NCBI GenBank assembly: GCA_964604515.1
Contig: CAZRZA010000001.1
Span: 16,243-80,242, forward strand
Reading direction: 5' to 3'
Source: an uncultured Gammaproteobacteria bacterium
GTDB taxonomy: Bacteria; Patescibacteriota; Patescibacteriia; UBA1558; GWA2-36-10
Length of the DNA stretch: 64,000 bases
The notes under the pieces: generated by a model
Databases searched by the model: none
What the model was told of the DNA's origin: nothing
Seen by the model: the letters and a program-made list of their open reading frames with translations, nothing else
Translations under genes and position numbers: made by a program
Part shown: in pieces, positions 1-61,589 of the stretch
Numbering within the stretch: the stretch's first letter is position 1
Layout of the letters: each line of letters begins with the position of its first letter

Positions 1-422
1 CTTTTACCACTTCCTGGTATATAAGGAACAACAACATAAAACTTTTTAGTCATTATTTTTTCCATTGTTACTAATTCAGAAATAAATTGTCTATAATCGG
101 CAGTTTGCATACGTAATAATTCATTAGTTTGTTCTTTTTCTAAAGATTCTAATTTATCTAAATAATCTTCAATATTTAAAGGACGAGATTGAACAACTAT
201 TTGAATAGGATATGCTAAAGAATTTAAAAATCCAACATAACCACTAATAACAGCTCTTTGTTCATCTTCTGACTTTAAGTCAAAGTTAATAGAAGATACA
301 AATAGCACTCCTCTAACTGTACCATCATTTAAAACAACCATATCATCTTTTATTTCTGCAATATCTAAATACTTCTGCGTAGAAGATGAGGGTTTATTTC
401 CGGCTAATTTTTTACTTTTCAT
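1..422 (-). CDS. VirB4/TraC-like type IV secretion ATPase, N-terminal fragment (gene continues beyond window start)
   Basis: Own translation of minus strand from ATG at about 420-422: MKSKKLAGNKPSSSTQKYLDIAEIKDDMVVLNDGTVRGVLFVSSINFDLKSEDEQRAVISGYVGFLNSLAYPIQIVVQSRPL... Pattern resembles N-termini of Gram-positive/CPR VirB4 (DUF87-type) ATPases; adjacent to PrgI-family gene. Not in ORF track because truncated. Confidence 0.4.
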   Translation of the reverse strand, partial: MKSKKLAGNKPSSSTQKYLDIAEIKDDMVVLNDGTVRGVLFVSSINFDLKSEDEQRAVISGYVGFLNSLAYPIQIVVQSRPLNIEDYLDKLESLEKEQTNELLRMQTADYRQFISELVTMEKIMTKKFYVVVPYIPGSGK

Positions 423-427
423 ATATT

Positions 428-889
428 TTATTTATTATGAACAACATTATTTTCCTGATTAGCATCTAATTCTCCTCTATATGCTCCTCCGGTATCTATT
501 ATTAATGATAGTTCTGATAATCTCTTTTTAGGAGCTAAAGACTTACGAGGAATAATCTTTTCTTTAATATCCTCTCCTTCTGCTTTTTTATGTTCTATTT
601 CTATATCCTCTTTTAACCAAACTCTAGTCTTTGGCTTTTTAAAAGATTGTATAAAGTTTAGAAGAAAAAAATGAAAAGGCATACCATTTACTTTAGCAAA
701 AGCTAAAGTACCAAAAGTTATTACTATTAATATTAATTGTAAGATGAATAAAGCAAAATCTGATAATTTATAAGCAACAAATGCTAAAAAGCCTGCAAAT
801 AAAACAATCAAAAATTGTCTAACAGTAATTGGTCCAAAAACTCTTGCTTCATTTTCTATAAATTGGGGGACAACAAATTTATCTTGCAT
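428..889 (-). CDS. PrgI-family small membrane protein (T4SS-associated)
   Basis: 153 aa, two hydrophobic helices, motif GPITVRQFL typical of PrgI-family proteins that accompany VirB4-like ATPases; 1-nt spacing to next gene. Confidence 0.5.
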   Translation of the reverse strand: MQDKFVVPQFIENEARVFGPITVRQFLIVLFAGFLAFVAYKLSDFALFILQLILIVITFGTLAFAKVNGMPFHFFLLNFIQSFKKPKTRVWLKEDIEIEHKKAEGEDIKEKIIPRKSLAPKKRLSELSLIIDTGGAYRGELDANQENNVVHNK

Positions 890-890
890 C

Positions 891-2075
891 TTAAAATCTT
901 AATAATTTATTTAAATCTGATATGGCTGTAAATTCTTTTTCTGTTAAAAATTCTTTCTTTTCTTTTTGATACTTATTTATAGTTTCTTTTACTTCTTTAT
1001 CATTTTCTAAACTTTCATTACCTATTTGTAAATATAGTTTATATATTTCATTATTCCTCCAAGCTTTTATACCTTCTGATTTTTTAGTGTAAGAATCTTC
1101 TGCTAAAAGATTAATCTTATAAAGTATTTTATCTGCCCTAGCCTGAGCATTGTCACCCAAACGCTGAAAATCACTTAATTTTAAATTCCTTAATTCATCT
1201 ATTGGTCCAGATAATACTTTTTTAGTTTTTTTAGATTGAGAAAGAACATCATCAATTTTATTTTTATCAGAACTAATCTTGGAGGGTCGAGAAACTTTTG
1301 GTAAAGCATCTTTAAATTTACTTTCTTTTTTAGCTACCTTTTCTTCTTTTATTTTCTTTTCTACTTTAGGTTTTTCTTTTATCTTTATTTCTGGCTTTAT
1401 CTCAGTTTTTATTAGCTGAGGTATTATCTTTGGTTCTGGAGCCTTAACTATATTTTTAATCTCTTTTATTTTAGGTTCAATAGGCTTTTGATTATCCTCT
1501 ACTTTCTCTAGCTTAACTTCTTCTATCATCACTACTAAACCACCTGCTTTTTCTATTTTCTTATATATTCCCTTTATTATTAATACTAAATTATCTACAA
1601 AATCTTTTTTTAAAGGTTTCTTATTTACTAATATTTTAGTATTTAAAGCCTCCCTTAAAACAATTATGCTTTTTCTATTACGAAAAAAATCAAAGATAAT
1701 ATTAGAAAAATATTCTTTATTTTCTTTATCTAATTTTAAATTATGCTTAATTATTAACTTATTAACTATTTTATTTAGACTATATTTCTTACTATTATCC
1801 TTTGGTAATTCTTTAGCTATTTTATCTAATTGATACTTATCTTCAGGATGAAAAGAAAAATCAGCCTTATCATTAGCTTGACCATTTAAAGAAGGTGTAG
1901 GCTCAAAAGAATCATTTTGAGGAGCTTTATCTAAATTAAAATTATTACTATTTTTTTCTTCCTGAAATGTATCTAAATCTTGATTTAAATTATGGAATTT
2001 ACCTTCTTGATCCTTAATTAATAAATCATTAGACCAATTACTATTATTTTTATTTTTGTCATCCTTTAAGGTCAT
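891..2075 (-). CDS. hypothetical Lys/Glu-rich protein (394 aa), possibly part of T4SS-like module
   Basis: Long ORF, K/E/I-rich with PEPK/IKPE repeats; no recognisable catalytic motif. Confidence 0.5.
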   Translation of the reverse strand: MTLKDDKNKNNSNWSNDLLIKDQEGKFHNLNQDLDTFQEEKNSNNFNLDKAPQNDSFEPTPSLNGQANDKADFSFHPEDKYQLDKIAKELPKDNSKKYSLNKIVNKLIIKHNLKLDKENKEYFSNIIFDFFRNRKSIIVLREALNTKILVNKKPLKKDFVDNLVLIIKGIYKKIEKAGGLVVMIEEVKLEKVEDNQKPIEPKIKEIKNIVKAPEPKIIPQLIKTEIKPEIKIKEKPKVEKKIKEEKVAKKESKFKDALPKVSRPSKISSDKNKIDDVLSQSKKTKKVLSGPIDELRNLKLSDFQRLGDNAQARADKILYKINLLAEDSYTKKSEGIKAWRNNEIYKLYLQIGNESLENDKEVKETINKYQKEKKEFLTEKEFTAISDLNKLLRF

Positions 2076-4054: not shown

Positions 4055-5227
4055 ATGAAAAGATATATATTTATTCTCGGACAAAATCCAGAATTATCAC
4101 AACAAGAAATTATTAATATTATTAAAAGAAAGAAAGGAATAATAGAGGCTATTTCTAATAGTTATGTTTTAGCTAAAATTAATATAAAACCCGCAGAATT
4201 AATTAATAATTTAGGAGGGATAATAAAAATAGTAGAGTATAAAGAAAGTATTAATAATTTAGAAAATTTAAATATTATTGATTATTATCAAGATAATTTA
4301 AATAAAGAAAAGAAAAATAATATTGGCTTTAGTATTTATAATAGTAATAATAAAGAATATCATAAAATATTTAAATCTTTTTTAGAATTAAAAAAAGAAT
4401 TAAAAAAAGATAATTATAAAATTCGTTTAGTGAGTAGTAAAGAAAATATATTATCTTCTGTAATTGTTTCTAAAAATAAATTATTAAATAAAGAATTAAT
4501 TATTATCAAAGATCATAATAATTATTTAATTGGCCTTACTTTAGCTATACAAGATTTTGCTAAATATAGTAAAAGAGATATGCTTCGACCAGCTCGAGAC
4601 AATAAATCAGGCATGCTTCCTCCTAAATTAGCTCAAATAATGATTAATTTAGCTAATTTAGATACTACTAAAGTATTTTTAGATCCATTTTGTGGTTCGG
4701 GAACTATCTTGCAGGAAGCTATGCTTTTAGGGTATCAAAATATAAATGGTAGTGATTTAAGTAATAAAGCTGTCATGGATACCAAAGAAAATATAGCTTG
4801 GCTTAAAAAAGAATATAATTTAAAGAATAATATTAATATTCAAAGAATGGCTACTAAAGACTTAAGCAAATTCTACCCTTCTCATTCTATAGATTTAATT
4901 ATTACTGAACCATTTATGGGAGATGCTCGTTTAATACAAAAAACTAATGACAAAGAAATATTAAAAAGCATTAAATATGAATTACAAGAATTATACTTAA
5001 ATACTTTTAAAGAATTTAAAAAAATACTATCCCCTCAAGGAAGAATAGTATTTATATTCCCTATCATTGATAATTTATATACTTTAGATCAAAGAGTGTT
5101 AAATAATATAGATTTTAAATTAATTAAAGTAGCTAATAACTCTGCTAATTTATCTAATAATAATAATTTAATATATAGTAGAGATAAACAAAAAGTTAAA
5201 AGAGAAATTACTATTTGGCAGAATTAA
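4055..5227 (+). CDS. SAM-dependent RNA methyltransferase, Trm11/RlmL-like (N2-guanine type motifs)
   Basis: DPFCGSGT (motif I) and TEPFMGD (NPPY-like motif IV) in C-terminal half; N-terminal half THUMP-like size. Confidence 0.5.
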   Translation: MKRYIFILGQNPELSQQEIINIIKRKKGIIEAISNSYVLAKINIKPAELINNLGGIIKIVEYKESINNLENLNIIDYYQDNLNKEKKNNIGFSIYNSNNKEYHKIFKSFLELKKELKKDNYKIRLVSSKENILSSVIVSKNKLLNKELIIIKDHNNYLIGLTLAIQDFAKYSKRDMLRPARDNKSGMLPPKLAQIMINLANLDTTKVFLDPFCGSGTILQEAMLLGYQNINGSDLSNKAVMDTKENIAWLKKEYNLKNNINIQRMATKDLSKFYPSHSIDLIITEPFMGDARLIQKTNDKEILKSIKYELQELYLNTFKEFKKILSPQGRIVFIFPIIDNLYTLDQRVLNNIDFKLIKVANNSANLSNNNNLIYSRDKQKVKREITIWQN

Positions 5228-6447
5228 GTTACCCAAGATAAATTATCCTTAATAACTTGTACTTCTCGCCATTTTAATATTCCATCAGCTTCATCTAAAT
5301 AAACAACTTGCCCACTACGCTTTATTAAATGAGTTAAATAATAAGCCATGATAGTGGGTTCTTTAATTTTTAATTTATCTACTAATATCATTTCTAAGAA
5401 TAATCTTCTTTTCAATAATGGTCCTTCTTTAACAAAACTATGAGCAACACCATTACCATATCTAATGGTTAGGAAACGCTTCATGACACTTTGTAAGCGT
5501 TTATCTTCCTTAATTAGCCTGTCTAGGCTCTTTTTCTTTATCAAGACCCTTAAACAGCCTAAAGCTTTATTACTATCTCCTAAGCCTAAACTATCCCATA
5601 GTAAATCTCCTACTTTCATTATTCTATTATCTACTTCAGAAAGAATATACTCTTCTGCTAAAATATCTTTTTCTAAATCTAATAAATCTTGTTTTAATTG
5701 TTCTAAGATATTATCAATATTTATTTCTTCTTTAACTTCTTTTTTCTTTTCTATATATTCAGCTACTGTTAATACAGAACCATTATTAATTATATTTACA
5801 ATATTATCCTTATCATATGAATCAAAGAACCTTATTAAGGAAGTCTTCTCTTCATTATTTAAATCTAAGATATTCTGATTATTAGAAAAGTATTTAGATC
5901 TTTGTAATGAATCATGATTACTGGCTCCTAAATAATGAACATAATCCTTTATCCAATTATCAACACTAGGAGTAACTTTACGATTATCTCTATTAACTAT
6001 CTTTTTAGAACTTAATCTTAAGTCTTTAAAGTCTTCATATTTTTTTAAAAGATTCTTAATATTACCATGAGCTTCATTGGGGAATAATTCATGTTGTAAA
6101 ACTGTTTTTCTTAAATGTTTTAAACGAGGCACTTTACCACCTAAACGAAGAATTAATCTATCTACTTTACCTAAATAATCTTGTAAAGGCCATAATATAT
6201 TATATGCTATTTCTAAGGCTAAAGCTCTTAAGTCTAATTCATTAGCATTTTCTATATCTTCTAATTTCTGAGGAAGGTCTAAAACAGAAACTTCTTTCAA
6301 AAATAAAGGTTTTTGTATGCTTACAATATAATCTATTTGCTTAAAACTAAGAGAAAACTTTTTTTCAATTTCTCTATTAATATTAGTTAAAGTTGAGCTA
6401 AAAACAATATCTTTAACTTCTTCTGGTAATTCTTGTAAGCTATTCAT
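5224..6447 (-). CDS. hypothetical cytoplasmic protein (407 aa), last gene of giant-protein operon
   Basis: Long ORF, 1-nt gap to upstream VirB6-like gene; no recognisable motifs. Confidence 0.5.
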   Translation of the reverse strand: MNSLQELPEEVKDIVFSSTLTNINREIEKKFSLSFKQIDYIVSIQKPLFLKEVSVLDLPQKLEDIENANELDLRALALEIAYNILWPLQDYLGKVDRLILRLGGKVPRLKHLRKTVLQHELFPNEAHGNIKNLLKKYEDFKDLRLSSKKIVNRDNRKVTPSVDNWIKDYVHYLGASNHDSLQRSKYFSNNQNILDLNNEEKTSLIRFFDSYDKDNIVNIINNGSVLTVAEYIEKKKEVKEEINIDNILEQLKQDLLDLEKDILAEEYILSEVDNRIMKVGDLLWDSLGLGDSNKALGCLRVLIKKKSLDRLIKEDKRLQSVMKRFLTIRYGNGVAHSFVKEGPLLKRRLFLEMILVDKLKIKEPTIMAYYLTHLIKRSGQVVYLDEADGILKWREVQVIKDNLSWVT

Positions 6448-6448
6448 T

Positions 6449-8899
6449 TTATTTATTAGATAACTTATCTACTGCCTTAGCTAAGTCTTCTGTTGCTTGA
6501 GTCTGGGCATCTTTAGCATCTTTGGCTGCAACTTTATCTTGTTCAGCTTGCACTTTTTTCTCTTTAGCATCTCTACTCTTCTGCTTCTTACTTATAAATT
6601 TATCACTTTCATCTTTATCATCATCTTCGTCTATATACTTATTATATTCATTAACAACTGTTTCGCTTACCAAATCTCTAGTAACTGTATTATGTAGCAT
6701 TTCATCTGCAGCCTCAAGATTTGTAGTACCATCATCATTTGTAACTTGCAATTCTACTATTAATTCTTTTTGTTTTCTGGTGCTCACTTCTTTTGTTAAG
6801 GATGCTGTATCCTTGGGATCAGCAATTCTAATAGCAGCTTTAAACATATCTGAAGCTTCTTCATTGTTCTTGGGAGCCATCTTAGCAAGAGATTTGCTGC
6901 TAATTACAGATCCTAAGCTCTTATCAAAGTCTTTTTTAGCTGCTGGATCAAGACCAGCGGTTAATTTCTTATAAGCAGCCTTGGATTGTTTAGGATCGTT
7001 CAATTGCATTATAGCTTTTTTACCAGCTGCACTTTCCTTGTCTATGCCACCATCTTTATCTGTTACCTTTCCTTCAGCCTTGATAGAGCTCATTCCTTCT
7101 TTAATAGCTTTTTGCATAGGCCCACTAAGTTTTTCAATAGACTTAAGAAAGTCTTCACTAGAGGTGTTCTTATTAGCTAATATTGCTCCTACTATTTCCT
7201 TAGCTCCTTCGGTTAACTCTCCGTTCTGGGCCATACTATCATCATCAAATCCTTTTAGAGCATCTACTCCTTTTGCTTTTACTAGTTTCTCTGCTGATTC
7301 TGGAGTATGAGTATCAGCTCTTGTCTGTCTTATTTTTTCTACTAACTCTGTTTCTCCTGCAGCACCTAAGTCTTCTATTACTCTCTGAGCCTCATCACTA
7401 TCTTTAAAATTATTATTTTTAGCCTTATCCTTACTTATGGCTAATTTAGTAGCTGGTCCCACACCCAAGCCTTTCTCTAAGTAATCACCCATGTCTGAGT
7501 CTGTTATACCAGCAGCTTTAGCCTTTTCTTCAACATAAGCTGTTTTCTTTCTTCGACGACTATTTTCTTTAGCTTTAGCACGCATTTCAACTTTCTCAAG
7601 AGATTCACCAACTTTACCAAAGGCTCCACCAACTTTTTGACCAAGTTTACTACCTGCTATTTCTTTTAATTTATCGCCATATTTACTGCCCGCTACTTGT
7701 TTACCAATTTTACTATCCTTAGCACTCTTAACTAACCTAACAGCTCCACCGCTTAACTTACTCTTGCCCCATGATGTAGCTCTAGAACCACCACCCTTAA
7801 ACATACCCTCTCCACTTGTGCCAGAATAGAGCATTCTTGCTCCTCCCTTAACTTTGTCTAAGGCTTTTTTCTTAACAGCATTGCCCATAGTACCTATAGC
7901 ATCAGATACTTTAGCAGCCCCTTTCATTCCCATCTCTGATGCTACCTGAAGACTGCCCATTAACATGGCTATACCAATAACAAAATTAATCATTTTATTA
8001 GGCTGATGAGCTTCTCCTAAGCCATCTAAACCGTCTCCTCCGCCACCGGAAGTCATGGAATCGCTTATATCACCAGCACCAACTATAGAAAAAGATAGCC
8101 AAAGAAAAAAAGCTAAAAGAGGGCCCTTTATTAATTCTTTACTTAATTTACTTAACCATTGATCAAAGTATTTCTTGCCACCTGGAAAAACATTAGCAAA
8201 AAAAGCCATAGGTGACAAAACAATAAGTATCCAAAGCTGAACTATCCTAGATGCAAAAGAAGTAATATATATTGCAATAACCATAACGGTTATTAAAAGC
8301 ATAATACCCATTAATATTACAGAAGTAACAACGATAAAGAGTTGCTCTCCACTAGCATTATCAATAGCTGTGCTTAATTCACCCCATTCTCCCATACCTA
8401 AAGCAACTGCTATATTACCAGCTGCTATATCTTTAATAGCAGCAACAAATGTTAACATTACTATTTGAAAAATATCAATAACAAAACCTACTATTGTTTT
8501 ACTAAAATTAATTAAAATAGCTAGAATAAGAAATTTCTTTAAAAGAGCTTCATAACCATAGCTTTTTATCTTTAATATAGTTGCAAAAGCAATAACTAAA
8601 AAAACAATAATAAAAAGCATATTAGACAAATCTCTCATTGCTATCCAACCATTTATAACGCCCTGTTCAAAAATAAAGTTATTATACTGAGCTATCATGG
8701 GTAAAATCCATAATTCTAATTTCAGAACTAAGCCTAAAGGATAAATCATTAAATAATAAACAATGCCTGCTATCATTTGTCCAGCAAAGCCCATCATACC
8801 ATCAGCATGAGCTAAATTAGGAATTATTAAACCACTGATTATCAAAAGAAAAGCCCAGTAATTATTTTTAAATTTATTTCTAATAATATTAATTCTCAT
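6449..8899 (-). CDS. VirB6/TrbL-like polytopic membrane protein with ~500-aa Lys/Gly/Ala/Asp-rich C-terminal tail
   Basis: Start placed at MRINIIRNKF... (signal-like, AHA cleavage) rather than track GTG at 8956 which overlaps the giant gene; ~7 hydrophobic helices in first 320 aa then low-complexity KxG-rich hydrophilic tail. Confidence 0.4.
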   Translation of the reverse strand: MRINIIRNKFKNNYWAFLLIISGLIIPNLAHADGMMGFAGQMIAGIVYYLMIYPLGLVLKLELWILPMIAQYNNFIFEQGVINGWIAMRDLSNMLFIIVFLVIAFATILKIKSYGYEALLKKFLILAILINFSKTIVGFVIDIFQIVMLTFVAAIKDIAAGNIAVALGMGEWGELSTAIDNASGEQLFIVVTSVILMGIMLLITVMVIAIYITSFASRIVQLWILIVLSPMAFFANVFPGGKKYFDQWLSKLSKELIKGPLLAFFLWLSFSIVGAGDISDSMTSGGGGDGLDGLGEAHQPNKMINFVIGIAMLMGSLQVASEMGMKGAAKVSDAIGTMGNAVKKKALDKVKGGARMLYSGTSGEGMFKGGGSRATSWGKSKLSGGAVRLVKSAKDSKIGKQVAGSKYGDKLKEIAGSKLGQKVGGAFGKVGESLEKVEMRAKAKENSRRRKKTAYVEEKAKAAGITDSDMGDYLEKGLGVGPATKLAISKDKAKNNNFKDSDEAQRVIEDLGAAGETELVEKIRQTRADTHTPESAEKLVKAKGVDALKGFDDDSMAQNGELTEGAKEIVGAILANKNTSSEDFLKSIEKLSGPMQKAIKEGMSSIKAEGKVTDKDGGIDKESAAGKKAIMQLNDPKQSKAAYKKLTAGLDPAAKKDFDKSLGSVISSKSLAKMAPKNNEEASDMFKAAIRIADPKDTASLTKEVSTRKQKELIVELQVTNDDGTTNLEAADEMLHNTVTRDLVSETVVNEYNKYIDEDDDKDESDKFISKKQKSRDAKEKKVQAEQDKVAAKDAKDAQTQATEDLAKAVDKLSNK

Positions 8900-8904
8900 A
8901 TATT

Positions 8905-11900
8905 TTAATCTACCTCTATCCAAGTATCGCTTGTATATATCTCTTCCTGATCCCACCAGTCTACAATTTTAATTTGGGGTTTATAACAAGATGTTCCTTC
9001 TTTATTTGATTTACCATCAGTACCATCACATTCAACAGCAGGGTCACCGCTATAAGTATAATTATATTGAAATACTTTATACCCCTCACTACAAGCATCA
9101 TTTGTACCACCAAAACCTTGCATATCTACACCAGTGTCTGTTGGATTATCACAAATTCCATTATCATCAGCATCAGTACACTCTAGAGAATGAGGCATTG
9201 TCCAATCAGAATTACATTTTGGTATTCTATTCTTATACTTACCAATAGTACCTGTAAAATAACCAAGGCCTTCCCAATCAACTTTTATAGCTTTTATGGG
9301 TGAAGCGTCAGGATATGCATAGTAATAGAATTTAATAGCTGCATTACCAGACTGATCATATTCTACCGTTATTCCTTCGTCTCCAAAAGTACATAAATTA
9401 CCACCACTACAATCAAGTTTATATGCTTTGGGATCATATACAGCCCCTGCATAACTATTAACAATATCACCAAGGCCGTCTGTTGAAAGATGATCGTAAG
9501 AATTACCGCTCCACTCTAAATTATATACTTGATAAAATAACTTTTTTAATTCTGTTACAATATATTCTGTCCCAAAGAAAACTGAAGAAGAATAATAAGT
9601 GTTATTAAGAACAGTACCTACTGGAACCTCAGTAATTATTGGTAAAGTATTGTCCCAATCTTGTGCTGCACCAAAATTACCATCTAATATTGTTGCGCTT
9701 CCAATCTCTGAGTATTTAAGAGCGGAAGAACCATATGATGCTGAGGAGTATGCATATGCTGACCAATTAACTATATCAGAAGTCGGATTATTTTTACTTC
9801 TCCACCAAATATCAGCTCTAACAATAGTCTTGTTATGCTCGGCAATACTGTCTACCTCTACAACTTGCCCACATTGCTGATAACAAGCATCTCCCGCACA
9901 AGTATTACCTGACAAAGAAATAGTATAACCACTTCCTGGTGTAGAGCAATCAGTTTCTGTTGTTGCTGCTAAACAGTCTTCTATTTCTGAGCTAATATCT
10001 AAGTCTGGAAAGCTCTCTGGCAATCCACTTAAGTCATATTCTGAGCAATAATCATTACTTATGGTTAAAGCCTCTATTAAGCTTACTATATCATACTCAT
10101 CTGTTCCATCGTCTTCTGTTCCGGCATTAATACTATCATAATAACCCTTATAAATAGTTTTGCTTCTCATACACTCTCTACCATAGGTTGGTCCTGAACA
10201 ATCAAGCTCATTGCACTCTTCTACTCCATCCTCTGGATTATATACATAATAATTATGATTCAATTCATTACAGTATGACTTATGACCATAAACACCCTCG
10301 TCCCAAGGACAATCCTTATGATCAGGAGTGTAACCAGGATAAGTACCATCACCACCTATACCATTTTCTAAATAAACATGTTTTGTATATACCTTGTGCT
10401 TGTTATCATCACAAGCCGGAAAACCAGACTCTTCACTTTCATCATTATGGCTACATATAATCTTATTATTATTTGTTAAACCAACTGATAAATAACTAGA
10501 ACCACTATATGTAGCATTAGGTTTTACATTTTCATCATAATAATAATATTTTAATGTCCCATCAAATAAAGCCTCAATATCACTCTCAAGACTTATGTCA
10601 CCGGTGCCAGATTCCAAATTAAAATCTTCTCTCATAAATCTACTATCACTAGCATCTCCAGGTATCAGTCTGCCACTACCTGTGGTAGGGTAAATAACTT
10701 CTTTACTAGAAACTGTATCGGTTTGATACTTTATATCTCCAATAGTATCTTTCATAAGATGCTTTAAGTAACTATTTTCAAACTCCGCAATATTAATTTT
10801 GCTACCAGCAGGAGCTACCATTAATAAATTACAATAATTATCGTTGAAATAACCACAATATATTAAATCTTCTGGTATTGTATATGCTTCACCAACTGAA
10901 CAGAAATATAAGTCTCCATCTGCATTATAATAACCAGCTTCATCATAATTATCATATAAACTATCTGTGCCACTAATGCTTTCTACCGGATACCATTGAG
11001 TGCATAAATTAGGAATACGATCATAAGAGCCACCCGCATCTGTATCTACTAATATATTAGATCCCTTAGGACTTTTATCATATTCTACACAAATACCAGG
11101 CCAATTATAATAAGTCTCAACTTTAGTTTTCTTAGAACAAGTACCAAAGCCCATCTCACCCTGACAATATACATCTTTATCTGTTGAAGTTGAACAATCT
11201 TCACCTAATAAATCAGGATCTCCTTCTGTACAAACCATATCACTAGAAGACTCTCCTTTGGCTATATATTTAGAATAATTAAGACCATAAGAAACTTTTT
11301 GATAAGTTGTTTCACAGCCACTAGGATTATCACTATTACAAATTTCAACTTGTTGATGATTTGAACTAATTTCACTGGTAGTAGGATTAATAACAGTATC
11401 TGGGAAAGGAGATTCTTCAATTGTATATCCTCTGGTACTTAAGCCATAATAAATATCATCACTATTACCTGCTTGAGGATTTAACCAACAACGCTCTTCA
11501 GAGCATTCACCATAAAAATCACCAACATTACAATCATCACCATTATTAGCAACATCAACACAAGCGGCATGTGTACCACCATTGATAACTAAACGAGGTC
11601 CATCAGTAAAATTATAAACTACCAAACCTTCAACTGGATACATATCTGGAACAGAATAACCTAAATATTCATCATCTGACCATCCTAAATAAGTACCTGC
11701 TAATCTTCCTTGATATTCTTCTTTAGTTAAAGGATCAACCTTAGTTATAATATCATCATCTAAATTAGTATAATTAGCCCATTGAGCACAACTTCTAAAA
11801 GGATCAGAGGAATCATAATTATATTCTGTACAAATACCCACTGAATCACATATATTTTTTACTTGCCCTTTATTATCTGTAACTTGAGTCAGAGACTTAC

Positions 11901-14900
11901 AAGCTAACCATTCTGAACACTTTCTATCTTTTTTAACTTTTATTAACTCATTAGAGTCACAGTCACCTACTATGGTAGGATCACAAGTACTAGGAGTCAT
12001 TGGAGTGCCAGCTGCTGTACTGCTAGCATAAGTGTCTATTGAGTCATAAATAGCTATTACTTCTGAGTGAGAAGAATTCCAATTATTAGCATTATAGAAT
12101 AACATACAACCACTATTCTGATCTACTTGACCAGTACAAGATGTTTTATCTATTTCCTCATTATCAAAATAATAATATGATTGATAATCTCCTTCTACAG
12201 TAATATCACAATTACCAGCTGTACAATCATCCATATCATTGGGATCTCTAAACTCTGTACATAAATTTTGTTCTTCCGGACAAATATTAACCCAATTATT
12301 ATTATAGTCACAGGGCTCTGGAGTATCAGTATTCAAGGTATCTATTTTCCACCAACCATCTGTCAAAGCATTATTATAGGTAATATCAGTTTCATAACGA
12401 CATAATTTATCTCCCGGATATTTAAAGTAATACATTTGTCCTTTAGAGTTTACAAAATTATCACAATATAAACCATCTTCTTCACATAGATTATCACTAT
12501 ATTGATCTGGATCATTGATACGGAAAACAGTATCATAATCAACTATAGTATCAGTAGTATCTAGTTCTGGTAATCCTAAAGCCTGACAACCCTGGTATTC
12601 TCCTGGACAATACTTATCAATATCTGGAACTAAATATTCAATACTATCTGCAGAAATAGTTAATTCTGCATTACCACTACCATATGTTTCTGCAAAAGGA
12701 CTGTCTGAATTATGAGTATTAATAACACCAGTACAACCAATAGCTTCTTCAGAACATAATTCATTAAATGATTTTAAATTATAAGCCTGCCCATTACCAT
12801 CAATATGTTCCTGACAACCAAGATAATAACCGGTATATGGTAAGTCACAAGAAGCTGGTGTAGTCCAAGAATCTTTAATCAAAGAAATATTACCAATAGT
12901 TTCTCTTAATTCTAAATTATCTATATAGATAAAATCAGCTCCATTTACTATTAATTGTAAAGACATATTATCTGCCAAAGAAGCATAATCTAATTCTGCA
13001 AAACTATCATTAGTAATTGTTAATTTATAATCTTGCCAATTAGATATTGCTATATCTTCATCAGAGTCTAAAGGAAGTTCCCCTAAGTCTATTATCTCTG
13101 CCCCTGTATCATCTAATAATTGAAGGCTAATATTATCTATAATACCTGTATTCATCATCCACCAGGATATTTCAAAGTTTTTATTTAATTGTATAGTATC
13201 TGCTATAGCTCTAGTAAAGGTACTGTTTGTGCTTAATTTTAAAGATTTACCATTATTAGATAAAGAAGCATTAGAAATATCTAAACTACCATTATTAGTA
13301 TTCCAAGAATTATAAGTACCATCTTCAAAATCATCTTTAAAGACGCTTCTTAAATTATTAGCAGAATTACCTTTATAAGCTCGACAATTGTTATGCTCTA
13401 TTGAACAACTATTACTTAAACTAGCTATGCCCTTATATAATTGTCCAGAACTATTACGACGATAATCAAGACAATTATCTGTCGCAAAAATTAATCTATT
13501 TTGTAATCTCCAATGAGTATTACCAGCTATATCAAAGAATTCACGACAATGAGGGTTATATTCTGGGTCATCATAAATATCAGCTGTATCTGCCCCACAA
13601 CTTGCTACAGTATCCGTAGTATCCTGACAAGTGTCTCCTCCAGGAGATATATTTGTACAAGGTGCTTGGTCTATATTAGATTTTAAGGCTAACCAAGTCT
13701 CTATTTGATAACCAGCGACATCAGAGCCCTCCCAAGTATAATATGTTTCTCCACTTTCTTCATAAACACATTGTCTAAGGAAAGAATAGTGTTCTGTATA
13801 TTCTCCTCCTTGACTTTGAGATCCTAAATTAGTAAATGATTCACAACCAATATATTGAGCTGGGCAAGCTATTCCTGTTTCTGGTATAAAATTATAATAC
13901 TCTACTTCATAATTACTTTCTAACTCATCAAAAGAACTTGGCATTTGAGCAAAAGAATCATAATTAAGACATTCAGCGGGACATAAATCATCTTGAGTTA
14001 TAATAGCTGGAATTAAATAACCACCATTAGAAGGAGTATAGCCCTGACAACCGACTTCTGTTGCCTGACACATTACTCTATCTTTATTTAAATTAATTTT
14101 ACCACCATCTCCATAGCTAGAATATGAAGGTGCAAAGCTATTTGCAGAAGAAACTATTTTTAATTGAATATTATCAAAATCTAAAAGACCAGTAGAAGAA
14201 TAAATATTAATACTAGCACTAGCTACATATTCATTTGTTTTAAAGTTACAATATCCTTTTTCTAAAGAAGTATTAGAAGGATTAAATTCTAATTTAATAT
14301 TATTATTACTTAAAGAACAATTACCAATGCCCTCTTCTCCTCCTGCTATACTGCTACTACTACAATCATTACTACCATCACAAGTTGCTATATCAATAAT
14401 AGCATCAGAATTAGATCCTGTTTGGGCAGCTAAAATTGCAATATTATAATTAGTATTAGGTAATAAAGTAATATTAGTATATAAGGGTGTTGTTCCTATT
14501 ATGACTTTTCCATCAAAAATACTACCCGCACCACTCCAACCAGTTGGTGTATTATTAGTCTCTCCATCAAAACTACTATTAGCTATTAAATTTGGTCCAG
14601 AGCCAGAACCAATAGCTGGTGTCATTACAATATATTCTGAACAGCCTTCATAATTATCGGGACAAGAACTAGTATTACTGTTTAAGAACAAATCATTACT
14701 TCCAATGCTTATATTACTATCTAAAACCCAGTCACCATTACTATCTTTTTCTTGAGAATAACGTAAACAACCCGCATTATTAGAGGTACAATACTCTAGA
14801 GTATCTTGAATATATGATTCTCTGCCATAACTAGCACTTTCAAAACTTAAACAGCCAGCATAATTAGGATTACAAGAATCACCTTCAAAACGCCAAATAT

Positions 14901-16647
14901 TCTCAGAACGAGTACAGTATCCATAATTAGTTTTACAATTACCCTGCTCATCTTCTTCTAAACAAGTTTTAAAGTCCGCACAATATTGAACACGACGAGA
15001 AGACAAAGAAGACTGTAATTCATTAGAATATGCCAAAGACTGACACATGGCACTAGGTTCTTTCAAAACCCAATCTTCATCTATTAAATGATAAAAAGGA
15101 TTGTGACCAGTATCATCATCACCAAAAATACAATTATAATTAGCATTGCTATTATCACTATCTTCAAAACACCCCAAAACCTCTGCTAATACCACTGGAT
15201 TGCTACCTGGACTAGCTAAAGCTGCTAATTCCCAACCAATGGGTAAGACTCCTGCTTTACGTAATTTAACTAAATTCTTATAACAAAGACCATTTTTATA
15301 ACAATCATAACTTTGATGAGTAGGATTTTCAGGAGATATCAATGGTAAATTATCATCCAGAGAGCCTTCGTCTATAAGCTGTCTAATTGTTTTCTTTTTA
15401 GTTATCAAAGAAAGAAATTCATTGTCAATAACACAATGATCTGCTTTACGAATATCTTCTTCCCCAGGACAAACAACATAATTTGTTAATAAACTATATT
15501 CTGGCATTTCTTGAAAATCAGGTGTTTTTATTTCTTTACTTATATCATAACCACGGGGTGGACGAGAAAAATCAAAACCACCTCTTAATCTGGAAACTAA
15601 ATCTTCAAAATTATCATCATCCTCATATTGATGCATGCCTAATAAACCTTTTTCTATATAAAATCTAGATAATTGACCGGCAATAGTCATAAGAAAACTC
15701 ATGCTAGCATTAGAAATAGCATTGGTTAGGGCCAAAGGAACACCTTCCCAGCTTAAGGACCTAAAATCACCTCCGGAAAAATTCTTAGCCTGTTCACTAG
15801 TTATATCACCCGAACTTTCTAATTCTTTAGCTATGGTCTCGCAACCAGTCTGCTTCTTCTCAGTAATAGGGGTTTTTTTATCTTTAAAACCTTGGCACTT
15901 AGCAAATTCCGCTTTTTTTTCTTCTAAGGTTTTATTCTTATCTTTTTTTATTTCATCTTGTAAAGATAAAAAAGTTCCTAATTCATTTTTCTTTACAGAA
16001 AACATTTTGCTAAAATATTCATTATAAGCATCCTCTTGTTCTTGTGGAGTATCATAAGCTGAAACATCTAATTTCTTTTTTGTAAAATTAACTTGTAATA
16101 TACTAGCCAATTTTTTATCTTTTAATGTTTCTCCAAATTCTTTCCAATTATTAACAACATTATTAAAATCACAATTAGGTGCTGGTGGTTTTTCGACATC
16201 TAATAATCCTAAAGTCAAAGAAAGTTTTATATCTAAAGAAGGAGAACAAAGATTAAGCTTTTCAAAACCACTATCATTTAAGCTAGAAGAAAGATCACCA
16301 ATAAAATCTCCCGCTGCAGAAGAAGCAGCATCAGCAAACAATTCAGAAGCTGTTTTTGTTTCAAATAATGGTTTACCACCCGTCTCTCCTTCTAATACTT
16401 GATTTAAAACACCGAAAGCAGCTTGTTGAGCTACATACTCTGCTGTATAATCTGTTAATTTATAAACTGTTCTTAAGGCTGCAAAATTTAAAGCATCTCC
16501 TATTTTTTCCCAAATCCATTTAGCAGAATCAACTACACCAAAAGTGGCCCATTGAGCTTTAGCTGGTTTTATATTACTAAATCCTATACCAGTTATTATA
16601 AAAAAGAATAAGGAAATACTAATTAAAATCTTTTTGGAGTTATTCAT
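8905..16647 (-). CDS. giant secreted cysteine-rich protein (2580 aa)
   Basis: Uninterrupted 7.7-kb ORF; N-terminal signal peptide (MNNSKKILISISLFFFIITGIGFSNIKPAKA/QW); >100 Cys with recurring Y-x-G-C modules (NYAGC, NYEGC, EVGCQGY, YIGCESF, YLGCQEH, YQGCQAL); no further TM segments. Confidence 0.8.
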   Translation of the reverse strand: MNNSKKILISISLFFFIITGIGFSNIKPAKAQWATFGVVDSAKWIWEKIGDALNFAALRTVYKLTDYTAEYVAQQAAFGVLNQVLEGETGGKPLFETKTASELFADAASSAAGDFIGDLSSSLNDSGFEKLNLCSPSLDIKLSLTLGLLDVEKPPAPNCDFNNVVNNWKEFGETLKDKKLASILQVNFTKKKLDVSAYDTPQEQEDAYNEYFSKMFSVKKNELGTFLSLQDEIKKDKNKTLEEKKAEFAKCQGFKDKKTPITEKKQTGCETIAKELESSGDITSEQAKNFSGGDFRSLSWEGVPLALTNAISNASMSFLMTIAGQLSRFYIEKGLLGMHQYEDDDNFEDLVSRLRGGFDFSRPPRGYDISKEIKTPDFQEMPEYSLLTNYVVCPGEEDIRKADHCVIDNEFLSLITKKKTIRQLIDEGSLDDNLPLISPENPTHQSYDCYKNGLCYKNLVKLRKAGVLPIGWELAALASPGSNPVVLAEVLGCFEDSDNSNANYNCIFGDDDTGHNPFYHLIDEDWVLKEPSAMCQSLAYSNELQSSLSSRRVQYCADFKTCLEEDEQGNCKTNYGYCTRSENIWRFEGDSCNPNYAGCLSFESASYGRESYIQDTLEYCTSNNAGCLRYSQEKDSNGDWVLDSNISIGSNDLFLNSNTSSCPDNYEGCSEYIVMTPAIGSGSGPNLIANSSFDGETNNTPTGWSGAGSIFDGKVIIGTTPLYTNITLLPNTNYNIAILAAQTGSNSDAIIDIATCDGSNDCSSSSIAGGEEGIGNCSLSNNNIKLEFNPSNTSLEKGYCNFKTNEYVASASINIYSSTGLLDFDNIQLKIVSSANSFAPSYSSYGDGGKINLNKDRVMCQATEVGCQGYTPSNGGYLIPAIITQDDLCPAECLNYDSFAQMPSSFDELESNYEVEYYNFIPETGIACPAQYIGCESFTNLGSQSQGGEYTEHYSFLRQCVYEESGETYYTWEGSDVAGYQIETWLALKSNIDQAPCTNISPGGDTCQDTTDTVASCGADTADIYDDPEYNPHCREFFDIAGNTHWRLQNRLIFATDNCLDYRRNSSGQLYKGIASLSNSCSIEHNNCRAYKGNSANNLRSVFKDDFEDGTYNSWNTNNGSLDISNASLSNNGKSLKLSTNSTFTRAIADTIQLNKNFEISWWMMNTGIIDNISLQLLDDTGAEIIDLGELPLDSDEDIAISNWQDYKLTITNDSFAELDYASLADNMSLQLIVNGADFIYIDNLELRETIGNISLIKDSWTTPASCDLPYTGYYLGCQEHIDGNGQAYNLKSFNELCSEEAIGCTGVINTHNSDSPFAETYGSGNAELTISADSIEYLVPDIDKYCPGEYQGCQALGLPELDTTDTIVDYDTVFRINDPDQYSDNLCEEDGLYCDNFVNSKGQMYYFKYPGDKLCRYETDITYNNALTDGWWKIDTLNTDTPEPCDYNNNWVNICPEEQNLCTEFRDPNDMDDCTAGNCDITVEGDYQSYYYFDNEEIDKTSCTGQVDQNSGCMLFYNANNWNSSHSEVIAIYDSIDTYASSTAAGTPMTPSTCDPTIVGDCDSNELIKVKKDRKCSEWLACKSLTQVTDNKGQVKNICDSVGICTEYNYDSSDPFRSCAQWANYTNLDDDIITKVDPLTKEEYQGRLAGTYLGWSDDEYLGYSVPDMYPVEGLVVYNFTDGPRLVINGGTHAACVDVANNGDDCNVGDFYGECSEERCWLNPQAGNSDDIYYGLSTRGYTIEESPFPDTVINPTTSEISSNHQQVEICNSDNPSGCETTYQKVSYGLNYSKYIAKGESSSDMVCTEGDPDLLGEDCSTSTDKDVYCQGEMGFGTCSKKTKVETYYNWPGICVEYDKSPKGSNILVDTDAGGSYDRIPNLCTQWYPVESISGTDSLYDNYDEAGYYNADGDLYFCSVGEAYTIPEDLIYCGYFNDNYCNLLMVAPAGSKINIAEFENSYLKHLMKDTIGDIKYQTDTVSSKEVIYPTTGSGRLIPGDASDSRFMREDFNLESGTGDISLESDIEALFDGTLKYYYYDENVKPNATYSGSSYLSVGLTNNNKIICSHNDESEESGFPACDDNKHKVYTKHVYLENGIGGDGTYPGYTPDHKDCPWDEGVYGHKSYCNELNHNYYVYNPEDGVEECNELDCSGPTYGRECMRSKTIYKGYYDSINAGTEDDGTDEYDIVSLIEALTISNDYCSEYDLSGLPESFPDLDISSEIEDCLAATTETDCSTPGSGYTISLSGNTCAGDACYQQCGQVVEVDSIAEHNKTIVRADIWWRSKNNPTSDIVNWSAYAYSSASYGSSALKYSEIGSATILDGNFGAAQDWDNTLPIITEVPVGTVLNNTYYSSSVFFGTEYIVTELKKLFYQVYNLEWSGNSYDHLSTDGLGDIVNSYAGAVYDPKAYKLDCSGGNLCTFGDEGITVEYDQSGNAAIKFYYYAYPDASPIKAIKVDWEGLGYFTGTIGKYKNRIPKCNSDWTMPHSLECTDADDNGICDNPTDTGVDMQGFGGTNDACSEGYKVFQYNYTYSGDPAVECDGTDGKSNKEGTSCYKPQIKIVDWWDQEEIYTSDTWIEVD

Positions 16648-16652
16648 ATATT

Positions 16653-17384
16653 TTATTTTTGTATTAATTTATCTCTTATTTCTAATAATTCTTCTTCAGT
16701 CAAAGAATTAATTTCTTCTACATTAGCCTGTGGTTGACTTAAAAGAAAAGATCTTATTTCTTCTGCACCCAAATCTTCAATATTAGTATTAGAATTTAAA
16801 CCACTTTCATTTATAGCTAATAATAAAGTTAGTAAATCATCATCTGTTAAAGAATTAACATCTTCTTCCGAAATATTATTATCTAATAAGAATTGTCTAA
16901 ATTCATTCAAAGTAGCTTGTAAGATAGTTAAATTAGGATCTGAAATAACATCTCCCACTACTTCTGATAATTTACTACTAGGAGTAATTAAAGATAATAA
17001 ATTACAATTTTCTCCCCGCGGACATAAAGGTTCCTGACCAGAGTTAACTTCTTCATAATCAGTATAACCATCACTATCTGTGTCTTCTAAAAAAATAGAA
17101 GTACGATATTGATATAATTCTTGATAATCTGTTAAACCATCATGATCTGTATCCTTGTCTTTTAATTCCGCAATACTTACTTGTTTATTATCTTCTAATT
17201 CTTTATCTAACTGTCTTTGTAAGGCTTCTGGTATTTCAACAAGAAAAGGATTATAAAGAGATTGTTTTAAATACTTAAAACCAAAGATAATAATAATTAT
17301 AGCTATTAAAACAAAAAAGAATATAATTTTATTATTATGAGCTTCTTTTTTATTTCCTAAAATAGAGTTATTTTTTATAGTCAT
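16653..17384 (-). CDS. membrane-anchored protein with thrombospondin-type-3-like Ca-binding repeats
   Basis: N-terminal TM anchor; DKDTDHDGLTDYQE and DTDSDGYTDYEE (D-x-D-x-D-G-x-x-D-x-x-E) repeats; 5-nt gap to giant gene. Confidence 0.6.
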   Translation of the reverse strand: MTIKNNSILGNKKEAHNNKIIFFFVLIAIIIIIFGFKYLKQSLYNPFLVEIPEALQRQLDKELEDNKQVSIAELKDKDTDHDGLTDYQELYQYRTSIFLEDTDSDGYTDYEEVNSGQEPLCPRGENCNLLSLITPSSKLSEVVGDVISDPNLTILQATLNEFRQFLLDNNISEEDVNSLTDDDLLTLLLAINESGLNSNTNIEDLGAEEIRSFLLSQPQANVEEINSLTEEELLEIRDKLIQK

Positions 17385-17452
17385 TAATTAACAATACTTT
17401 TTATTTTAATATTCATTATTATAACATAAAAAAGGATAATTAACAAAATGGT

Positions 17453-18283
17453 TTAAGATATTTTAGAATATAAATCTAACCAATTTTCTTTAGTTAAATC
17501 TTGAGCTCTAATATTCTTGTCTAAATTTAAACTGGTAAATATTTTAATCAATTTATCCTTTTTTAAATTACTGTCTATTATTAAATTATTTATTAATTTT
17601 TTTCTCTTATGTATAAAGCCTCTATGAATTAAATTCCAAACTTCATCTTCAGCTACATTATAACTCCATTGATGAATATCATAAATATGTATTAAAGCAG
17701 AGTCTACTTTAGGAATAGGATAAAAATCTTCTTTTTTTACTATAGCTACTGTCTCTACTTGAGCATAAAAAGAAATAGCTAAAGATAATAAGCTTTGTCT
17801 CTGATCTATTAAACGATCAGCCACTTCTTTTTGTACCATCAAAAACATATCAGAAGGTTGTTTTTTAAAAGACAAAAACTTATTAATAAACTTAGAGGTT
17901 AAATAATATGGTATATTGGCTACTATTTTATAATTATTTAATTTAGAATTTAATAATACTTTTCTAAATTGTTCATTAGTTAATGATAGTATATCTTGCC
18001 AAATAATTTCTAAATTATTATTATCTTTTTCTAATTTATTTAATACTTTAGAAAAATTTTTATCTATTTCTATAGCTATTACTTTCTGCTTATCTTTAAT
18101 TAATCTTTTTGTTAAAGATCCTAAACCAGGACCAACTTCCAAAATTAATTCTTCTTTGTTAATATTTGCTTCTTTAATAATAATATCTAAAATATCTTCT
18201 GAAATTAAAAAATTTTGCCCCCTAATCTTATTAGGAGACAAATTATATTTTTCTAATAATTTAAATAATTCTTCTTTAATCAT
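17453..18283 (-). CDS. rsmA: 16S rRNA (adenine1518/1519-N6)-dimethyltransferase
   Basis: GQNFL motif, VLEVGPGLGSLT SAM-binding motif. Confidence 0.9.
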   Translation of the reverse strand: MIKEELFKLLEKYNLSPNKIRGQNFLISEDILDIIIKEANINKEELILEVGPGLGSLTKRLIKDKQKVIAIEIDKNFSKVLNKLEKDNNNLEIIWQDILSLTNEQFRKVLLNSKLNNYKIVANIPYYLTSKFINKFLSFKKQPSDMFLMVQKEVADRLIDQRQSLLSLAISFYAQVETVAIVKKEDFYPIPKVDSALIHIYDIHQWSYNVAEDEVWNLIHRGFIHKRKKLINNLIIDSNLKKDKLIKIFTSLNLDKNIRAQDLTKENWLDLYSKIS

Positions 18284-18960: not shown

Positions 18961-18972
18961 AATTTTTTTTAA

Positions 18973-24304: not shown

Positions 24305-24472
24305 ATTATTACATATTAACAAATTATTCAAATCTAGACAATATATAAACACAAACCTATACATTTATTATAGTAAAACCCTTATATTCATTGAATATTC
24401 AATATCAAGCCTATACATTATTAATAATATATATAAATAACTATTGACAAAATCCTTTTATTTTACTACTTT

Positions 24473-25849: not shown

Positions 25850-25876
25850 AAAACAGCCTAGAAAGGCTGTTTTTTA
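25849..25876. terminator. bidirectional hairpin terminator between convergent genes
   Basis: aaaacagcctagaaaggctgtttttt (A-run, stem, T-run). Confidence 0.6.
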
Positions 25877-25882
25877 TATTTT

Positions 25883-47859: not shown

Positions 47860-47896
47860 ATACATAAGTATACTATATATATGATATAATATAAAT

Positions 47897-61571: not shown

Positions 61572-61589
61572 AAATATATTATTTAATTC

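Follow-up and report, generated by a model that had tools for sequence, protein, structure and literature searches.

A giant, cysteine-rich exported protein as a candidate host-contact partner of the Patescibacterial type IV secretion system

A 64-kb stretch of Patescibacterial DNA (contig CAZRZA010000001.1, positions 16,243 to 80,242; "the window" throughout, at its full length) carries a single gene that takes up 12% of its length. This gene, at 8905..16647 on the minus strand, is an uninterrupted open reading frame (ORF) that starts with ATG and encodes a ~280 kDa protein of 2580 residues with 98 cysteines, here called the giant protein. We propose that it is a Sec-exported, disulfide-stabilized, glycan-binding partner of the Patescibacterial type IV secretion system (T4SS) that makes contact with the host. 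The tie to the T4SS is one of gene context, and we give the proposal as a whole an even chance of being right. The window has a G+C content of 23–35% and compact genes mostly on the minus strand, a layout typical of a genome of the Patescibacteria, or candidate phyla radiation (CPR).

The giant gene is intact and encodes an exported protein

Full-length, co-linear orthologues of 2.5–3.7 thousand residues occur in many independent assemblies, including contigs of 0.8–1 Mb, and cysteine positions are conserved from one end of the giant protein to the other. On these grounds we rejected an assembly artefact; the chance that the long ORF is a chimera or a set of fused genes is negligible. An earlier note on this DNA, made from the letters and ORF translations (the sequence-only reading), had described one uninterrupted 7.7-kb ORF, which our analysis bears out, and our check for frameshifts or chimeric joins found none.

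Residues 1–31 (16555..16647, minus strand) form a signal peptide with a KK n-region, a hydrophobic core at residues 7–23, and an AKA-Q cleavage site. The A-K-A, then Q, that follows the hydrophobic segment is a site of the signal-peptidase-I type, and P-x-x-A-x-A is retained there in the family consensus. Hydropathy analysis found one hydrophobic segment in the protein, at residues 4–27, confirming the signal peptide without further transmembrane (TM) helices that had been read from the sequence. The export signal supports a secreted, extracellular protein. We rejected the giant as a substrate or effector of the T4SS, since a Sec signal peptide makes export by that route unnecessary.

Cysteine accounts for 3.8% of the giant protein (n = 98) and 0.57% of the window's other 50 ORFs, a 6.6-fold excess (binomial P ~6e-47) that places 98 of the window's 189 cysteines in this one gene; the sequence-only reading had put the count above 100. 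In a MAFFT alignment with 45 relatives that are 25–54% identical, 78 of the 98 positions hold cysteine in at least 80% of sequences, and most of these are invariant. Past the signal peptide, 71 of 76 full-length family members carry an even number of cysteines. Where a cysteine is not universal, it is gained or lost together with a neighbor: for 134/159, 777/800, 1555/1563, 2145/2150, 2250/2255, and 2490/2499, presence and absence coincide completely (phi = 1.0). This is the pattern expected for ~49 mostly sequence-local disulfides, and we infer that such bonds form in vivo. The cysteines thus behave as disulfides, in keeping with the earlier suggestion that the protein is disulfide-stabilized.

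The recurring element among the cysteines is a short loop. Cys-x6-Cys occurs 11 times in the giant protein, compared with 3.1 ± 1.7 times in 2000 shuffles (maximum 10). Family-wide, the loop consensus is C-x5-G-C-x2-[Y/F], with 9–20 copies per member. All motifs quoted in the sequence-only reading are present (NYAGC at residues 595–599, NYEGC at 665–669, EVGCQGY at 864–870, YIGCESF at 932–938, YLGCQEH at 1275–1281, AIGCTGV at 1302–1308, and YQGCQAL at 1351–1357). Its "recurring Y-x-G-C modules" hold as short Cx6C loops but not as domain-size repeats, as self-BLAST of the protein found no internal repeats.

The DsbA-like protein to which the same reading pointed is real: a membrane-anchored thiol-disulfide oxidoreductase (62130..62882, minus strand; Thioredoxin_4 4.7e-21, DSBA 9.5e-18), not linked to the giant gene. 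Beside it (61095–62123, minus strand) is a 177-residue membrane protein without a Pfam match, possibly a DsbB/VKOR analogue. A second neighbor is exported, 158 residues long, and carries DUF411 (5e-24) along with a weak match to glutaredoxin. Together with the DsbA-like gene, the two may make up a small redox or metal-handling cluster.

Two carbohydrate-binding-module-like domains lie among cysteine-rich regions

We drew the domain architecture of the giant protein from a conservation profile, two AlphaFold2 runs, and profile and fold searches. The AlphaFold2 models used only 30–37 sequences, hence their low confidence at residues 1–380 and over most of 1381–2400.

Two β-sandwiches resemble carbohydrate-binding modules (CBMs) and together make up ~12% of the protein. 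β-Sandwich A (residues ~701–850; 14098..14547, minus strand) was recognized from AlphaFold2, Foldseek, and the family profile; its model at residues 690–840 has predicted local distance difference test (pLDDT) scores of 70–87. Foldseek against the PDB matched CBM16 (2zey, 2zew), CBM4 (1gui), CBM22 (4xup), and a hyaluronan-binding module at E values of 2e-6 to 2e-4 with target TM-scores of 0.55–0.65; the matches of β-sandwich A also include Cry domains at ~2e-6. Searched against PDB sequences, the family profile returned CBM chains only (for β-sandwich A, CBM4 1gui, 1.2e-4, and CBM16, ~1e-3; for β-sandwich B, CBM22 4xup, 2.5e-5). β-Sandwich B (residues ~1101–1250; 12898..13347, minus strand) is CBM_4_9-like by the family profile and by Pfam PF02018, which scored 16.8 bits (E = 0.0093) on the whole protein and 22.7 bits (1.4e-4) on the isolated segment, both below the 25.9-bit gathering threshold. 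Many giant homologues carry a precomputed PF02018 match. From these models and profiles, both β-sandwiches are predicted to be jelly rolls of the CBM4/9/16/22 type.

Foldseek of the N-terminal half against the BFVD viral models found only CBM-bearing phage tail or receptor-binding proteins. The CBM-like inserts, together with residues 1950–2400, are clearly less conserved than the cysteine scaffold. A role in adhesion or host interaction, as first suggested from the sequence, is compatible with the jelly rolls and with these structural matches to phage receptor-binding proteins. The accompanying statement that the protein has no known adhesin domains stands for Ig, cadherin, and RTX arrays, which are absent by Pfam, but has to be amended for the two detectable CBM_4_9-type β-sandwiches.

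The scaffold around the β-sandwiches is largely without recognizable relatives. The N-terminal cysteine-poor region (residues 32–390; 15478..16554, minus strand) is predicted to form long helices, with pLDDT mostly below 50, and holds a conserved A-Y-D..A...A.GG.G..PLF motif and the Cys134/Cys159 pair. Cysteine-rich region 1 (residues 391–700; 14548..15477, minus strand), defined by conservation and AlphaFold2, overlaps an α/β domain at residues 380–580 (pLDDT 75–93) with invariant R463, G471, E473, A475, D523, and W526 and the motif NLVKLRKA..P.GWELAA; D558 is also among its invariant charged residues. Four Cx6C loops follow at residues 571–669. Cysteine-rich region 2 (residues 851–1100; 13348..14097, minus strand) is a β-rich domain with pLDDT ~90 and the conserved motifs TWEGSD..GYQ and NP.CREFFD. 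Cysteine-rich region 3 (residues 1251–1950; 10798..12897, minus strand) is rich in β-hairpins and contains 38 cysteines, almost all invariant, and four further Cx6C loops (AlphaFold2 confidence 50–80). The helical N-terminal region, both confidently modeled cysteine-rich domains, and the 1250–1950 stretch had no match in Pfam, NCBIfam, PDB sequences, or PDB folds.

The remainder of the protein comprises a variable and a conserved part. Residues 1951–2400 (9448..10797, minus strand) are indel-rich between relatives and alignable within the closer clade only, with occupancy of 0.35–0.77, conservation of 0.14–0.35, and pLDDT of 25–40 at residues ~2230–2400. The C-terminal β-sandwich (residues 2401–2580; 8908..9447, minus strand) is conserved, with pLDDT 70–92; its best Foldseek matches, PKD and FnIII, are not significant (E = 0.017), and Foldseek of the C-terminal half against the PDB gave nothing at E ≤ 1e-3.

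Searches for anchors and repeats were negative. Pfam on seven sub-segments at E ≤ 5 returned CBM_4_9 only, NCBIfam gave nothing useful for the giant protein or its neighbors, and Pfam found no SLH or other wall-anchoring domain in the giant. There is no C-terminal LPXTG or hydrophobic tail: the sole LPYTG is internal, at residue 1269, and the protein ends ...TWIEVD. Nor is there a tandem array of repeat domains, given the lack of Pfam repeat families, the empty self-BLAST, and a single weak Ig/PKD-like C-terminus. We rejected a repeat adhesin of the RTX, cadherin, or Ig kind, as no tandem repeat domains were recognized. The "fibre" or "tip adhesin" form suggested earlier is not supported, the poorly modeled regions giving no fiber shape.

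The giant gene lies in an operon with TSP3 and VirB6-like genes

On the minus strand, the gene order is ksgA (17453..18283), a 68-nt gap, a 243-residue gene, the giant gene, an 816-residue gene, and a 407-residue gene. The sequence-only reading lacked this context, and the conserved TSP3/VirB6-like operon in a T4SS cluster is the most informative feature of the locus. In the gap behind ksgA, at 17418..17446 (minus strand), lies a sigma-70-like match (TTGTTA-17-TATAAT with an extended TG), the best promoter-like site in the region on the gene's strand. By its match to consensus it is a candidate operon promoter.

The 243-residue protein (16653..17384, minus strand; Pfam TSP3_bac 1.3e-6) has an N-terminal TM helix, two TSP3-type calcium-binding repeats (D-T-D-x-D-G...), a conserved C-P-x-G-x-x-C loop, and an acidic helical tail. 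Downstream of the giant, the 816-residue protein (6449..8899, minus strand; its start is Met20 of the listed ORF) is a VirB6/TrbL-like membrane protein with ~6–7 TM segments and then a long K/A/E-rich tail. Four of 22 orthologues match Pfam TrbL (best 9.1e-8), and public annotations of the orthologues name TrbL or TrbL_3, both weakly; its profile against the PDB returned only low-complexity and coiled-coil noise from the tail. The operon's last gene (5224..6447, minus strand) encodes a 407-residue cytoplasmic protein without a Pfam match and follows the VirB6-like gene in 18 loci.

The genes are tightly packed. Gaps of 5 nt separate the 243-residue gene's stop from the giant's ATG and the giant's stop from the VirB6-like ATG, and the 407-residue gene starts 1 nt past the VirB6-like stop. 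The same 11-nt junction, TAAAATATATG (stop, 5 nt, start), occurs on the minus strand at 16645–16655, 8897–8907, and 420–430, the boundaries of the 243-residue and giant genes, the giant and VirB6-like genes, and PrgI and TrsD. In a genome without an obvious Shine-Dalgarno sequence, this junction may be a translational-coupling signal. The giant gene is probably translationally coupled with the TSP3, VirB6-like, and 407-residue genes.

A distant member of the giant family (P0078, at 10001–19078 of locus L085) has a faint dockerin type I match. Together with the calcium-binding repeats of the TSP3 protein, this hints at a calcium-dependent mode of docking.

The operon lies in a T4SS gene neighborhood

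Two further T4SS genes lie ~8 kb from the giant gene. A PrgI family gene (428..889, minus strand; Pfam PF12666 4e-10) encodes the VirB3 analogue of monoderm T4SS, and the 5′ part of a TraC-like/TrsD gene reaches the window edge (1..422, minus strand). The latter is 74% identical to a Nomurabacteria PF26593 gene and in syntenic loci precedes VirB4. Ahead of PrgI is a gene for a 394-residue lysine-rich protein (891..2075, minus strand), syntenic in loci L001 and L002 and homologous to a 515-residue gene of locus L084 (4e-25); this gene is among the conserved ones of the T4SS cluster. The operon and PrgI are separated by a divergent methyltransferase gene, rpsF-ssb-(rpsR)-efp, and the 394-residue gene. 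The methyltransferase, of the UPF0020/N6_N4 type (4055–5227, plus strand), sits between the VirB6 operon and rpsF and is kept in L001, L002, L006, and L011–L013.

L001 and L002 show the window's layout plus VirB4. In the distant family member L084, the order is ksgA, TSP3, giant, PDDEXK nuclease, a 206-residue gene, TrbL_3, a 284-residue gene, a 515-residue gene, PrgI, TraC-like, and VirB4, with no housekeeping genes between the giant and VirB4. Because this order is contiguous and its 284- and 515-residue genes are homologous to the window's 407-residue (weakly, 4e-6) and 394-residue genes, the two halves in the window read, on gene order and homology, as one T4SS cluster split by an insertion.

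Neighbor counts were made with hidden Markov models over 83 non-duplicate loci. Of the 74 loci with upstream sequence, 71 have a TSP3 gene as the giant's immediate upstream neighbor. Where the downstream flank measures 3 kb or more (52 loci), a VirB6-like gene follows on the same strand in 28, directly adjacent in 18. The same gene order recurs in deeply divergent lineages, namely Nomurabacteria, Komeilibacteria, L084, and L085.

In Uhrbacteria-like loci, the VirB6-like gene is 1–3.7 kb off, behind a convergent small lipoprotein gene and/or one for a 550–630-residue lipoprotein with ~11 cysteines. In L034, L051, L054, and L067, and also in L066, L072, L079, and L080, a gene for a cysteine-containing lipoprotein of ~200–290 residues is convergent to the giant's 3′ end, and further downstream is a lipoprotein of 530–630 residues with 7–13 cysteines (mostly 11–12). 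The larger lipoprotein directly precedes the VirB6-like gene in L034, L051, L054, and L067, where the flank is long enough. These lipoproteins may be additional, lineage-specific extracellular partners.

The window also encodes a wall hydrolase with LysM and Peptidase_M23 domains (24473–25849, plus strand; M23 1.3e-31). Its relative position is conserved in L001, L002, and L085, and for the T4SS encoded nearby it is a candidate for the VirB1-like task of opening the wall.

The giant protein represents a large, unnamed family

A search of a 5.8-billion-protein collection found 86 homologues of the giant protein, nearly all of 2.5–3.6 thousand residues, with a few shorter ones mostly from short contigs. 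The closest is 54% identical over 100% of the length. Where named, the homologues are "hypothetical protein" of Nomurabacteria, Parcubacteria, Uhrbacteria, or "Patescibacteria group". A scan of one genome per species with the patterns TWEGSD..GYQ and NP.CREFFD (residues 851–1100) found relatives in at least 572 species genomes and added Komeilibacteria and Falkowbacteria to the lineages that carry the family. Each locus retrieved carries one copy of the gene.

With residues 31–600 as query, phmmer against 1.84 billion representatives of 50% identity clusters matched 1143 at E ≤ 1e-3, 1045 at ≤ 1e-10, and 497 at ≤ 1e-30. Among the 150 best matches, this part always stands N-terminal, at the very end or close to it, in a giant protein or in a fragment. 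The family aligns throughout from residue 1 to ~1950, the last ~630 residues only within the closer clade. The giant family is thus one of large, unnamed, secreted proteins of 2.5–3.7 thousand residues from bacteria with Parcubacteria-type names, and our literature searches found no earlier description of a family of giant cysteine-rich CPR proteins.

Many family-bearing contigs are titled "uncultured Gammaproteobacteria bacterium" (third-party annotation assemblies; for example L005, L007, and L015), and L072 is titled "Candidatus Kapaibacterium sp." and has the same Patescibacterial gene neighborhood. As this neighborhood is that of the remaining loci, such titles are probably taxonomic mislabels or mark mis-binned contigs.

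A host-contact model and its alternatives

In the model that we favor, the giant protein would be exported by Sec, lose its 31-residue signal peptide, and fold on the outer side of the membrane as a string of compact domains that its predicted local disulfides stabilize, with two lectin-type β-sandwiches inserted in the conserved cysteine-rich scaffold. The less conserved parts, CBM-like and pre-C-terminal, would most likely recognize glycans on the surface of another cell and so could set host specificity. The gene would be co-transcribed with those for the TSP3 membrane protein, the VirB6/TrbL-like channel protein, and the 407-residue cytoplasmic protein, and the single-pass TSP3 protein could be the giant's membrane dock. 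The operon is part of a chromosomal, relaxase-less, monoderm-type (MPF-FATA-like) T4SS cluster with PrgI/VirB3, TrsD, and VirB4. There the giant might keep the channel in place against the envelope of the host, as surface adhesins do in the conjugation systems of Gram-positive bacteria. We infer its part as host-contact partner from the operon's membership in the T4SS cluster; binding of glycans, docking to the TSP3 protein or VirB6, and a role in secretion are likewise putative.

Several observations weigh against this model, whose T4SS link is one of gene context. No VirB6-like gene was found within the 3–6 kb of downstream flank in 24 of 52 loci, though the flank of these loci (~4–4.7 kb in most) may be too short to reach it. 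In L083, the 10 kb that follow the giant contain no T4SS-like gene. (At 24285–25984 of this locus, ~5.5 kb downstream, are parA and parB; they suggest that the replication origin is close, a location already reported for T4SS genes of Patescibacteria.) The ksgA gene is nearly as constant a neighbor (70 of 82 loci), and the synteny may in part reflect simple inheritance. Between the operon and PrgI-TrsD, the window has the methyltransferase gene and rpsF-ssb-rpsR-efp. No relative of the giant was seen in Saccharibacteria, the sole group with a tested T4SS. Since residues 1–380 and most of 1381–2400 are poorly modeled, neither a docking surface nor a fiber shape can be claimed. Finally, the giant possibly contains an unrecognized enzymatic domain, with R463, E473, and D523 of the 380–580 domain as its active site, considered here because CBMs are typically appended to glycoside hydrolases.

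The best of the alternatives, possible if on the unlikely side, is that the giant works independently of the T4SS, as a general surface adhesin or a lectin for host recognition, and binds host or environmental polysaccharide, its place beside VirB6 reflecting co-regulation or inherited order. Its CBM-like folds resemble phage receptor-binding modules, its CBM and pre-C-terminal regions vary, and the neighborhood gaps just described, in about half of the loci with flank and in L083, would be expected. Giant surface proteins of Vampirococcus are also thought to attach CPR cells to hosts (PMC8080830). Set against this are the 5-nt junctions on both sides of the giant gene, the recurrence of the order in Nomurabacteria, Komeilibacteria, L084, and L085, and the contiguity of the whole T4SS cluster with the giant in L084.

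A bolder version of the T4SS link, which we consider unlikely, makes the giant an integral extracellular part of a pilus-less T4SS in Parcubacteria-type CPR (Paceibacteria, ABY1). Docked through the TSP3 protein and VirB6, it would replace the VirB2 pilin arrays of Saccharibacteria and the diderm outer-membrane core, and serve as a bridge or conduit to the host. If true, this would be a previously unseen T4SS architecture, built largely of folds without known relatives.

Quite unlikely, in our view, is a secreted enzyme acting on polysaccharide or on a cell wall, be it the host's or the cell's own, to remodel it or break it down. Its CBMs would target it, its catalytic domain would be too divergent to recognize, and it could serve as a VirB1-like wall opener. 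CBM4/9/16/22 modules normally accompany glycoside hydrolases, as they do in our PDB and Foldseek matches, and the confidently modeled α/β domain at 380–580 has invariant R463, E473, D523, and D558. VirB1 homologues are scarce in Patescibacteria (PMC12102498), and giant genes found in other predatory bacteria have been tied to breakdown of the cell wall (bioRxiv 10.1101/2023.11.21.568195). Searches of Pfam, NCBIfam, and PDB sequences, however, matched the giant to no hydrolase, its Foldseek matches show no hydrolase fold apart from their CBM parts, and the conserved LysM-M23 peptidase nearby could already fill the wall-opening role.

Very improbable is a structural envelope component, whether a wall-spanning scaffold or an S-layer-like coat, whose CBM-like modules bind the cell's own wall polymers. 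One giant copy per retrieved locus, wide conservation with strong purifying selection on the cysteine scaffold, and synteny with the housekeeping genes ksgA and leuS would suit it. S-layer proteins, however, are typically cysteine-poor and without such architectures, Pfam found no SLH or other wall-anchoring domain, and the VirB6 operon and variable distal regions suit an interaction role better. We rejected an S-layer protein as unlikely.

Comparison with known systems

Patescibacteria account for much of bacterial diversity and seem to live on other cells, and their mode of host contact is largely unknown. A 2025 phylum-wide survey found their T4SS to be monophyletic, MPF-FATA-like, and mostly relaxase-less, with VirB4, TrsD, PrgI/VirB3, VirB6, and VirB2-like pilins as parts, and detected no adhesins such as PrgB in the phylum (PMC12102498). 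In Southlakia epibionticum, a cultivated Saccharibacterium, transposon sequencing showed the T4SS cluster to be essential for epibiotic growth; it holds pilin arrays and proteins of ~1000–1100 residues, none longer than ~1100 (PMC10633639). The function of the Patescibacterial T4SS has been described as completely unknown (PMC11665869). A single-copy giant that is conserved in hundreds of species and operonic with VirB6 is a concrete candidate for the part that faces the host in the uncultivated CPR lineages richest in species. Several of its confidently folding domains have no detectable relatives, and for a monoderm-like bacterium with a minimal genome its use of disulfides is extreme.

The closest functional parallel is with the adhesins of Gram-positive T4SS (PrgB/aggregation substance and PrgC of pCF10; TraO of pIP501). 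Like them, the giant is Sec-exported, encoded in a monoderm-type cluster without an outer-membrane core, and plausibly involved in cell-to-cell contact. Unlike PrgB-type adhesins, it has no sequence or domain homology to aggregation substance, GbpC, or Ig-like domains (Pfam, NCBIfam), lacks a C-terminal LPXTG anchor, and is twice the size and extremely cysteine-rich. We rejected an LPXTG-anchored, PrgB-like adhesin, as there is neither a C-terminal LPXTG with hydrophobic tail nor an adhesin-domain match. The systems differ as well: in contrast to Gram-positive conjugative T4SS, the one here is chromosomal and without a relaxase (PMC12102498).

The VirB2 pilin arrays of Saccharibacterial and Microgenomatial T4SS are also extracellular, variable, probably host-facing, and encoded in the cluster (PMC12102498; PMC10633639). 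Those pilins are small two-helix proteins, unlike the giant globular protein. From TrsD to ksgA, the ORF map of the window leaves no room for a pilin gene, and no pilin family is listed in the gene tables of L001, L002, L084, and L085; a complementary distribution of pilins and the giant is our hypothesis. Two other surface proteins of the window deserve mention. A type IV pilin-like protein (46744–47865, minus strand) joins an N-terminal methylation motif (5.3e-8) to a Laminin_G_3/concanavalin-like lectin domain (3.7e-22) and is another candidate host-binding surface protein. An exported 1001-residue protein (26838–29843, minus strand) has three fibronectin type III domains (4.4e-41) and a C-terminal PG_binding_1 domain (2.7e-13).

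At the domain level, the giant shares the galactose-binding-like jelly-roll fold of CBM families 4, 9, 16, and 22, with weak but consistent sequence similarity at residues ~701–850 and 1101–1250; unlike CBM-bearing enzymes, it has no recognizable attached glycoside hydrolase. With furin-like, GCC2_GCC3, and TNFR-type repeats (for example Elapor1) it shares dense local disulfide loops and Gly/aromatic signatures, but neither a Pfam match nor a regular repeat period. Foldseek lists Elapor1 at E values of 3e-5 to 5e-4 with a root-mean-square deviation of 33–38 Å, a resemblance that serves as a lead only.

Exported proteins of large size and adhesin-like character that are encoded beside a secretion machine are already known. 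The membrane giants of Vampirococcus lugosii and the giants of Omnitrophota are likewise very large exported proteins of reduced genomes with a proposed role in host attachment, and Omnitrophota giant genes also adjoin secretion-system genes. Those giants are built of known repeats (WD40, PKD, integrin, fibronectin, DUF11), whereas the protein described here consists mainly of unrecognized cysteine-rich domains, belongs to another family and another CPR lineage (Parcubacteria-type classes), and has a specific partnership with TSP3 and VirB6. What appears to be undescribed is this giant family itself, with its unrecognizable cysteine-rich domains, its extreme disulfide content in a minimal genome, and its VirB6/TSP3 operon in Parcubacteria-type lineages.

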